Positions 272-1,295 of a stretch of 1,295 bases of DNA are shown here, piece after piece. Both the position numbers and the translations under genes were made by a program. Origin of the DNA: Escherichia coli. GTDB lineage: Bacteria; Pseudomonadota; Gammaproteobacteria; Enterobacterales; Enterobacteriaceae. The DNA is taken from NCBI RefSeq assembly GCF_003334385.1, contig NZ_QOWN01000117.1; one strand, given 5' to 3'. The first letter of the stretch is position 1, and each line of letters opens with the position of its first letter. The notes under the pieces are model-generated. The model was not told the origin of the DNA. It did not search any database and was given only the letters and a program-made list of their open reading frames with translations.

Positions 272-492
272 TCCGGAATATTTTCAAACGGTTTACCAAT
301 CAGACTTTCCGTTGTCCTCGTCCTGGTCAGTGGTACACCACGCCTGCAGGGCATGTTCTACGTGTCAGCCTGGTTGACCGTGAATGTCAGAAGGTGATTT
401 GTGAACCGCTGGGCCGTAATTACCGCATCAGTATGCCGCTTATAGCCTTTTGCTCCGGAAAAATGTTTAAGCGTCTGGGAGGTGTGGCGTGA
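268..492 (+). CDS. Hypothetical small basic protein (74 aa) with four cysteines; possible nucleic-acid-binding or metal-binding protein
   Basis: ATG at 268-270 lies 5 nt downstream of AAGGGGG (256-262). The ORF runs to TGA at 490-492. By my count it has 13 Arg/Lys against 3 Asp/Glu, with Cys at residues 16, 40, 45 and 62 and His at 29. It overlaps both neighbours by 4 nt. Confidence 0.7.
   Translation: MIRNIFKRFTNQTFRCPRPGQWYTTPAGHVLRVSLVDRECQKVICEPLGRNYRISMPLIAFCSGKMFKRLGGVA
477..482 (+). promoter_or_regulatory. Shine-Dalgarno-like ribosome-binding site for the CDS starting at 489 (GTG)
   Basis: GGGAGG, 6-nt spacer, then GTG; embedded in the 3' end of the upstream gene. Confidence 0.6.
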
Positions 493-788
493 ACTGTTTT
501 CAGTTTGTGTGCGGATGTGCTTTCGATAACCCGATTCAGCGCCTGATTATGTTGCGTGTTTTGATGTCGGGTTCTTCAGACGGTGAAGGCGAGAGAGTTA
601 TTGATCATCAGGTGCTTGCTGATTTCTGCTGTTGTTCTAAGCAAGCGATATTCAGGGAAACCCTGGCACTGGAAAGAGCTGGTTATCTTCATATCCGAAA
701 AATTGCAACGCTTACTATTGATGCAAAAGCCAGACTACAACCTGCGCGTGGCTACACAATTCTCATGCCGCGGAAGGAGGTTGTATGA
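489..788 (+). CDS. Hypothetical 99-aa protein with a helix-turn-helix-like segment and two cysteine clusters; putative small DNA-binding regulator
   Basis: GTG at 489-491 lies 6 nt downstream of GGGAGG (477-482). The ORF ends at TGA 786-788. The internal ATGs at 549 and 564 have no Shine-Dalgarno motif, so the GTG is preferred. Residues about 40-69 (HQVLADFCCCSKQAIFRETLALERAGYLHI) fit a helix-turn-helix pattern. Cys clusters are C-G-C (nt 510-518) and C-C-C (nt 627-635). Confidence 0.65.
   Translation: MNCFQFVCGCAFDNPIQRLIMLRVLMSGSSDGEGERVIDHQVLADFCCCSKQAIFRETLALERAGYLHIRKIATLTIDAKARLQPARGYTILMPRKEVV
774..780 (+). promoter_or_regulatory. Shine-Dalgarno-like ribosome-binding site for the CDS starting at 785
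   Basis: AAGGAGG, 4-nt spacer, then ATG; embedded in the 3' end of the upstream gene. Confidence 0.65.
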
Positions 789-1295
789 GCCGTTACGCCC
801 CCACACCGGAAGTTATGGCTATTGGTCAAATTAATATTTCCGGCAATGTTACACCTGCGAACTGGTGGAAATATATTCGACTACCCAGTGGGCGTCCGGA
901 TGCGACGGCTATCGCTCTGCTTTCAGAGATCGTTTACTGGTACCGCCCGACAGAGGTCAGGGATGAGCACACCGGAGCGTTGCTGGGATATCGCAAGCGT
1001 TTTCAGGGCGACAAACTGCAAAGAAGCTACCAGGCGTTTGCTGAGCAGTTTGGTTTCGGGAAAAGGGAAACCGCAGATGCGCTGAAGCGTCTGCGCGATG
1101 CAGGGTTTATTACTCTGGATTTACGCACGGTGGAAATGCTCGATGGGGTGAAATGCAGCAATATTTTGTTTGTCGGGATCAACCCACAGGCAATTGCGGC
1201 CATCACCACACCTTCTTCTGTTTCGCCAGAAAGTAACAGCAATAATGCAATCAGCGATACAGCTATTACGTTAAAACGGAACACCCCCCGACGTC
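785..1295 (+). CDS. Putative winged-helix DNA-binding protein, possibly a phage/plasmid replication-initiator-like N-terminal domain; 3'-truncated at the window edge
   Basis: ATG at 785-787 lies 4 nt downstream of AAGGAGG (774-780). Frame 2 is open to the end of the window, about 170 codons with no stop. The segment FGKRETADALKRLRDAGFITLDLRTVEMLDGVKCSNILFVG looks like a recognition helix followed by a beta wing. It is followed by a Ser/Asn/Thr-rich low-complexity stretch (TTPSSVSPESNSNNAISDTAIT) typical of an interdomain linker. The functional assignment is by pattern resemblance only. Confidence 0.7.
   Translation, partial: MSRYAPTPEVMAIGQINISGNVTPANWWKYIRLPSGRPDATAIALLSEIVYWYRPTEVRDEHTGALLGYRKRFQGDKLQRSYQAFAEQFGFGKRETADALKRLRDAGFITLDLRTVEMLDGVKCSNILFVGINPQAIAAITTPSSVSPESNSNNAISDTAITLKRNTPRR

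Follow-up and report, generated by a model that had tools for sequence, protein, structure and literature searches.

A stand-alone initiator-type winged-helix protein encoded directly upstream of the replication initiator gene of an Escherichia coli prophage

The start of a prophage replication module

The window analyzed here, a stretch of 1,295 nt, matched chromosomal E. coli prophages over its full length at 99.5–99.8% identity and covers the beginning of the replication module in a lambda-like E. coli prophage. In RefSeq, it is set in the early-right operon of a lambda-like prophage, where the gene order is cI repressor, cro-like gene, YmfL, Rha-family regulator, a 74-aa ORF, gene 3, and gene 4, with PerC, methylase, RusA, and Q located downstream of gene 4. 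RefSeq labels gene 3 as a "hypothetical protein" (99 aa) and gene 4 as a "replication protein." Four genes fall within the window, the first and last of them in part:

Ending at nt 271: C-terminus of the Rha-family regulator
268–492: the 74-aa ORF (phrog_1153, function unknown)
489–788, + strand: gene 3, 99 aa with a GTG start, a stand-alone winged-helix protein
785–1295, + strand: gene 4, first 170 codons, running off the window end and comprising the N-domain (aa 1–143) and the start of the linker

Overlaps of 4 nt between stop and start codons (ATGA at 268–271, GTGA at 489–492, and ATGA at 785–788) link all four genes into a chain, a sequence arrangement consistent with one translationally coupled operon. 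A promoter and terminator scan of the window returned nothing above chance, and the repeats identified within it were just short two-copy families at chance level.

We identified a mosaic boundary at approximately nt 484–489, at the start of gene 3. Only nt 1–484, containing the Rha C-terminus and the 74-aa ORF, were common to 51 deposited phage genomes, including mEp460, cdtI, and several Stx phages, and to approximately 900 further E. coli genomes, with a different replication module downstream in the phages and genomes sharing this part only. Because the deposited phages share only nt 1–484, the mosaic joint falls exactly at the gene 3 start. Gene 3 and gene 4 were found together in 196–222 of 5,426 complete E. 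coli genomes (~4%). The 74-aa ORF accompanies the replication module in other loci too (L013 and L014–L016) and diverges far faster than its neighbors (dN 0.35 against L016; gene 3, 0.036).

Two winged helices and the motif they share

Gene 4 is a prophage replication initiator. It matched phrog_270 (E 8.5e-76) and the "O-like" phrog_391, and its full-length copies encode 327–363 aa. The C-terminal 130 aa matched phrog_1701, annotated as a "DnaD-like helicase loader" (E 2e-35), along with phrog_26426, and the C-domain was 61% identical to that of Enterobacter and Salmonella initiators preceding DnaC-like and DnaB-like genes. At the N-terminus, the AlphaFold2 model of aa 1–143, built from the family alignment, is a winged helix to which an N-terminal extension and an inserted hairpin are added (pLDDT 91.5). 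Residues 80–110 gave a GntR-type helix-turn-helix (HTH) match to YvoA, and the Pfam match of gene 4 to HTH_36 was not significant (i-E 0.11).

For gene 3, the AlphaFold2 model built from the family alignment is a classical winged helix (pLDDT 81.5), with helices at residues 15–26, 40–47, and 51–63 and strands at residues 36–39, 67–72, and 86–91, giving the winged-helix topology H1-beta1-H2-turn-H3-beta2-wing-beta3. The protein matched phrog_4617 (E 2e-29) over profile positions 3–93 of 223 and also the "O-like" phrog_391. The two-domain layout of an initiator, in which a linker with the origin and a C-terminal recruiting domain follow, was not found in gene 3, which ends right after the wing. 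Pfam gave no significant HTH_36 (PF13730) match for gene 3, its only hit being HTH_Crp_2 at E 0.012, and one relative, P0030, has a precomputed PF13730 match. NCBIfam and PADLOC searches returned nothing significant, and a PDB sequence search with the gene 3 profile retrieved a spurious designed-protein match only. The elements of the two winged helices lie as follows:

606–677, + strand: HTH of gene 3 (helix 2 aa 40–47, turn, and helix 3 aa 51–63; DSSP on the AlphaFold2 model)
627–635, + strand: Cys47-Cys48-Cys49 of gene 3, invariant, at the end of helix 2 and in the HTH turn
654–695, + strand: motif 1, RETLALERAGYLHI, gene 3 aa 56–69, covering the Ala-Gly turn, with the C-terminal half of helix 3 before it and the beginning of wing strand beta2 after it
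687–761, + strand: wing of gene 3 (beta2 aa 67–72, a low-confidence loop, and beta3 aa 86–91 with the invariant GYTI)
1019–1183, + strand: winged-helix core of gene 4, aa 79–133 (beta1, helix 2 at 82–89, helix 3 at 93–105, and strands at 109–117 and 123–132)
1073–1117, + strand: motif 2, ADALKRLRDAGFITL, gene 4 aa 97–111, with the same make-up (C-terminal half of helix 3, Ala-Gly turn, and beginning of the wing strand)

The initial annotation had pointed to a pair of similar peptides in the two genes between nt 606 and 1130, and both are present there exactly as quoted, RETLALERAGYLHI in gene 3 and ADALKRLRDAGFITL in gene 4; helix 2 of the gene 3 HTH starts with the codon at nt 606. The consensus proposed for them, [charged]xxLxxL[E/R]xAG[Y/F][L/I], contains a register slip and as written fits neither protein, the spacing being L-x-L in gene 3 and L-x-x-L in gene 4. 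With Ala-Gly as the anchor, the pattern L[ER]xAG[YF][LI]x[IL] fits both (gene 3 residues 61–69 and gene 4 residues 103–111) and had zero occurrences in 20,000 shuffles of either protein. Among relatives, this detailed pattern was identified in 3 of 39 sequences for gene 3 and 2 of 18 for gene 4. The generic winged-helix pattern h..h...Ghh was widespread in three initiator-related families (23/39, 11/18, and 21/21) and aligns also to GntR-type regulators, such as YvoA. Since the detailed pattern is conserved in neither family, the residue identities beyond the generic winged-helix pattern are coincidental additions to a generic signature.

The peptides had been described as a recognition-helix signature. 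In the AlphaFold models of both proteins, which are winged helices, the motif occupies the same element (the end of HTH helix 3, the Gly turn, and the first wing strand), and it consists of fold core, with a buried Leu, the Gly turn, and the strand, and not of the DNA-reading part. In HTH proteins, the N-terminal half of helix 3 normally reads bases. When the motifs are aligned on Ala-Gly, that half has one residue common to the two proteins, K51/K93. Because the shared residues are fold core and the DNA-facing positions of helix 3 differ, the further suggestion that the two proteins recognize related binding sites is unsupported. A common DNA motif was likewise not found near gene 3 across six diverged loci, where a low-power search with 11-mers and at most 1 mismatch retrieved only coding conservation in the initiator C-domain. 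The motif is an ordinary winged-helix core signature and is not evidence of common DNA targets.

We compared the two proteins and their families at the level of sequence, profile, and structure. BLASTP of gene 3 against gene 4 returned nothing, and direct hhalign of the two families, which spans helix 2 to the last wing strand in register, was marginal (P 0.0027–0.0057, probability 6–11%, 50–51 columns). Both families aligned significantly to the O protein of Escherichia phage Min27, the gene 3 family to residues 3–81 (probability 91%, P 9e-7, 25% identity) and the gene 4 N-domain family to residues 37–88 (probability 95%, P 4.6e-8), with both motifs falling on the Min27 O segment HIRALEEMGLL. 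The gene 4 N-domain also aligned to the N-domains of HTH_36-type initiators (probability 93%, P 3e-7), which are 41% identical to Min27 O by BLASTP and match phrog_4617 in the same positions as gene 3; gene 3 itself reached only P 0.0034 against the HTH_36 initiator profile. The best viral structural neighbors of gene 3 were phage initiator N-domains, the top one being that of Min27 "O" (99 columns, TM 0.73).

Since both families align significantly to the same Min27 "O" segment, gene 3 and the gene 4 N-domain are, as judged from profiles and predicted structures, remote homologues within the initiator-type winged-helix lineage. The direct similarity and that between gene 3 and HTH_36 being marginal, the homology rests on one strong intermediate plus the common fold. 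The idea of two related DNA-binding modules encoded side by side was therefore supported, as a stand-alone module next to an initiator with a common winged-helix fold and a match to the same Min27 "O" segment, and neither an absence of profile similarity beyond the motif nor a difference in fold, the two outcomes named in the initial annotation as speaking against it, was observed. Convergence on a generic motif, offered there as an equal possibility, describes the details beyond the generic pattern, conserved in neither family, and does not describe the fold core, whose motif positions were inherited by both proteins from the O-like initiator domain family.

A wider form of the convergence argument holds that two unrelated HTH proteins happen to carry L-x-x-A-G-aromatic and that their adjacency is meaningless. 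The blank BLASTP result, the direct hhalign probability of 6–11%, the rarity of the detailed pattern (3/39 and 2/18), and the spread of h..h...Ghh across winged-helix families, including GntR YvoA, would all be expected from such a coincidence. We nevertheless consider it unlikely, given that both families match the same Min27 O segment significantly, that the motif lies in equivalent elements of a common fold, that initiator N-domains are the best viral structural neighbors of gene 3 over its full length, and that the gene pair is conserved across genera.

A conserved gene upstream of the initiator gene

The gene 3 family is a narrow prophage family of Enterobacterales. An exhaustive search of 1.84 billion proteins gave just 25 representatives at E ≤ 1e-3, from which the long proteins P0100 and P0112 were rejected as repetitive false positives. 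Proteins of the family have a constant length of 98–105 aa and were identified in Escherichia, Enterobacter, Serratia, Citrobacter, Klebsiella, Salmonella, Pantoea, and Yersinia, with 24 invariant columns, including G-x-G-E-R, F-C-C-C-S, and G-Y-T-I. The family was seen only in prophages and metagenomes, and a tblastn search of 50,697 deposited phage genomes with gene 3 as the query gave no match at E ≤ 1e-3. Gene 3 is under purifying selection (dN 0.036, dS 0.50, dN/dS 0.07).

In all 7 of 7 assessable contexts, gene 3 lies directly upstream of an initiator gene. The junction in the window is formed by a Shine-Dalgarno (SD) sequence and an overlap of stop and start codons:

776–788, + strand: SD GGAGG and ATGA overlap at the gene 3 stop/gene 4 start, with the same arrangement in L003, L006, L008, L009, and L010

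The ATGA overlap was present in every assessable context except L012, where the two genes are 2 bp apart, and an SD sequence usually precedes it. From this arrangement, translation of gene 4 would be coupled to that of gene 3. The neighboring initiators belong to four subtypes (phrog_270, phrog_428, phrog_345/6493, and phrog_6643/1032), and initiator N-domains, iterons, and downstream helicase genes vary among the gene 3 contexts. Gene 3 is thus a real conserved gene that immediately precedes the initiator gene and in nearly all contexts overlaps it.

In E. coli UTAK-5, gene 3 is cleanly absent, and the GTGA junction of the 74-aa ORF runs straight into codon 2 of gene 4 (L014 2950–3050 compared with L002 6440–6830, corresponding to window 440–830). 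Gene 3 behaves as an optional cassette of approximately 300 bp bounded by SD and (A/G)TGA microhomology. Because UTAK-5 lacks gene 3 in an otherwise identical arrangement, the initiator does not need gene 3.

Several unusual forms were also identified. In L009 (5001–5645), P0113, at 214 aa a long form within the gene 3 family, has an ACCCS motif and a C-terminal half weakly resembling an initiator N-domain (phrog_1347, E ~1e-3), and the next gene downstream encodes an O-like initiator. P0001, a 121-aa protein from an ENA metagenome contig, has a Min27-O-like N-terminus, MSMELMVKAMKIRVGNPLRKLVLI, fused to gene 3 from residue 3, and represents either a recombinant of two related domains or an assembly chimera. 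In Serratia odorifera (L006 5297–7584), the initiator gene is split by an insertion sequence (Transposase_mut), and the gene 3 homologue upstream is intact.

Presence/absence polymorphism, together with the mosaic joint at approximately nt 484–489, the odd fused and long forms (P0001 and P0113), and a match to only the first 93 of 223 phrog_4617 positions, could be taken to mean that gene 3 is a decaying, functionless leftover of an initiator 5' end after a recombinational module swap. Such an origin by decay is extremely improbable in view of a dN/dS of 0.07 at a dS of 0.5, the constant length and 24 invariant columns across genera, the conserved SD and ATGA coupling, and the retention of the family beside four initiator subtypes.

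We also considered that gene 3 might be the functional counterpart of lambda CII, the ~97-aa activator of lysogeny promoters encoded between cro and the initiator gene. Gene 3 has the right size, and in Enterobacter and Salmonella prophages, it follows directly after cro and precedes the initiator gene, with no other CII candidate present. Where other genes separate cro and the replication module, however, as in the window, in Serratia (L006), and in L009, gene 3 keeps to the initiator and not to cro. The prophage of the window, moreover, already has the CII-family protein YmfL (Pfam Phage_CP76, E 7e-14), gene 3 is absent from UTAK-5, and its fold is a winged helix with no CII match in Pfam, PHROGs, or NCBIfam, so that a CII role has very little probability.

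Probable origin, proposed role, and comparison with known systems

In the linker DNA of gene 4, we identified 12-bp TACAGAGATTAC repeats arranged head-to-tail and encoding TEITT units in frame. The tandem array starts approximately 38 nt past the window end (L001 7333–7472), and copy number ranges from 2 in most loci (L002 and L014–L016) to 11.7 in the Shiga-toxin-producing E. coli (STEC) genome STEC2018-553. The repeats were enriched (4 matches against 0.56 expected), and an outlying copy lies inside the window:

1258–1269, + strand: TACAGCTATTAC, an outlying copy of TACAGAGATTAC identified as a repeat match

TEITT-type repeats recur in the linkers of homologues only 45–70% identical, which speaks for conservation of the DNA sequence itself. 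In HTH_36-type initiators beside gene 3 homologues in Enterobacter (L003 5633–5806) and Salmonella (L008 5654–5834), lambda-like iterons, TTTTCACCCTTCAGAATCTGAC, are present in three to four copies and occupy a position corresponding to that of the gene 4 repeats. In these 2 loci, lambda-like repeats of 20–27 nt are followed by 24-bp AT-rich repeats in mid-gene, which is the textbook layout of a lambdoid origin. Because TEITT repeats recur in distant homologues and the iterons of HTH_36-type initiators sit at the same place, the TACAGAGATTAC repeats are probably origin iterons bound by the gene 4 N-domain, by analogy with these loci; a tandem 12-bp array without spacers is unusual for iterons. 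Placing a probable origin for this initiator type helps prophage annotation.

The explanation that we favor, and hold to be probable overall, is that the window encodes an initiator and a stand-alone winged helix remotely homologous to it, with a common fold core, and that gene 3 is an accessory or regulator with a different target. Under this explanation, the N-terminal winged helix of gene 4 would bind the TACAGAGATTAC repeats in the linker of its own gene, as in the lambda ori, and the DnaD-like C-terminal domain would recruit the helicase machinery. Gene 3 would be made together with the initiator through translational coupling and would serve the replication module as an optional accessory or regulator. 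It most likely binds DNA, through helix 3 (invariant S50 and Q52, with K/R51) and a basic wing (R70, R82, and R87). A protein-protein role is an alternative for gene 3, as winged helices can serve such contacts, the N-terminal domain of DnaD being an example.

As to what gene 3 would bind, helix 3 is near-invariant beside quite different iterons, and its target is therefore probably not the iterons of the initiator. We weighed the opposite reading, in which gene 3 and gene 4 have identical or similar iterons as their targets and gene 3 is a competitor or partner of gene 4 at the origin. The two proteins are distant homologues, adjacent and co-translated, and an N-domain-only protein without a helicase-recruiting domain would be a natural origin competitor. 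Common sites are nonetheless improbable, as the N-terminal half of helix 3 has just K51/K93 in common, gene 3 proteins 55–67% identical keep a near-invariant helix 3 beside differing initiator N-domains and iterons (TACAGAGATTAC and TTTTCACCCTTCAGAATCTGAC), and no common repeat was found near gene 3.

The Cys-Cys-Cys triplet was invariant in 28 sequences and kept in the most distant members, whose helix 3 differs; the codons used for it vary, which places the selection at the level of the protein. We rejected an operator or RNA structure formed by a 7-bp inverted repeat on either side of the CCC codons (nt 614–650), as synonymous changes in other loci destroy it. The triplet is possibly a thiol or metal switch; in sensor proteins of the ArsR/SmtB-like kind, which are winged helices, a ligand bound by cysteines clustered in or beside the HTH causes release from DNA. 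More speculatively, and with a rather low likelihood, the gene 3 family could form an undescribed class of "orphan origin-binding domains," stand-alone initiator N-domains that are co-translated with any initiator present in a lambdoid prophage and gate replication, perhaps by thiol or redox sensing through Cys-Cys-Cys or by occluding the origins of the resident phage or its competitors.

The motif itself is ordinary and changes nothing. The gain, a modest one, is that a small gene annotated only as "hypothetical protein" or "transcriptional regulator" is a conserved stand-alone copy of an initiator DNA-binding domain. With its apparent translational coupling to initiators of several unrelated subtypes, it is a concrete candidate for a regulator acting on prophage replication, also in the Shiga-toxin-producing E. 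coli strains in which this prophage is present.

Among known systems, the origin-binding domain of the O initiators of lambda and Stx phages is N-terminal and the iterons lie inside the O gene (PMC7466680). Gene 4 is predicted to have the same layout as lambda O and O-like initiators, with an N-terminal winged helix, mid-gene linker repeats, and a C-terminal partner-recruiting domain, and the whole length of gene 3 is covered by its matches to O-like PHROGs and structural models. Compared with lambda O, however, the HTH of the gene 4 N-domain is preceded by an additional N-terminal part and a beta-hairpin (SEIVYWYRP...), the gene 4 repeats are 12 bp long and head-to-tail, whereas those of lambda and Stx phages are four to six spaced 19-bp iterons, and the C-terminal domain of gene 4 is DnaD-like and not lambda-O-like, whereas gene 3 has no linker, iterons, or C-terminal domain. 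With respect to the Pfam HTH_36, GntR, and MarR families, both proteins lack a significant HTH_36 match and an effector or dimerization domain of the GntR or MarR kind. The N-domains of RepA from a staphylococcal multiresistance plasmid (PDB 4pta) and of DnaD (PDB 8ojj) share 7–11% identity, a likeness at the fold level only.

The best bridge in both sequence and structure is the Min27 "putative replication protein O" (222 aa, ABY49882.1, PHROG 4617), whose N-terminal 80 residues align to gene 3 and to the winged-helix core of gene 4 and whose gene precedes a large "P" gene of the primase-helicase type. Min27 O is full-length, with a Gly/Ala-rich linker and a C-terminal part, whereas gene 3 stops right after the wing and has CCC where Min27 O has C-E-V. 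Gene 3 is an uncharacterized stand-alone winged helix of the initiator type with an invariant Cys triplet.
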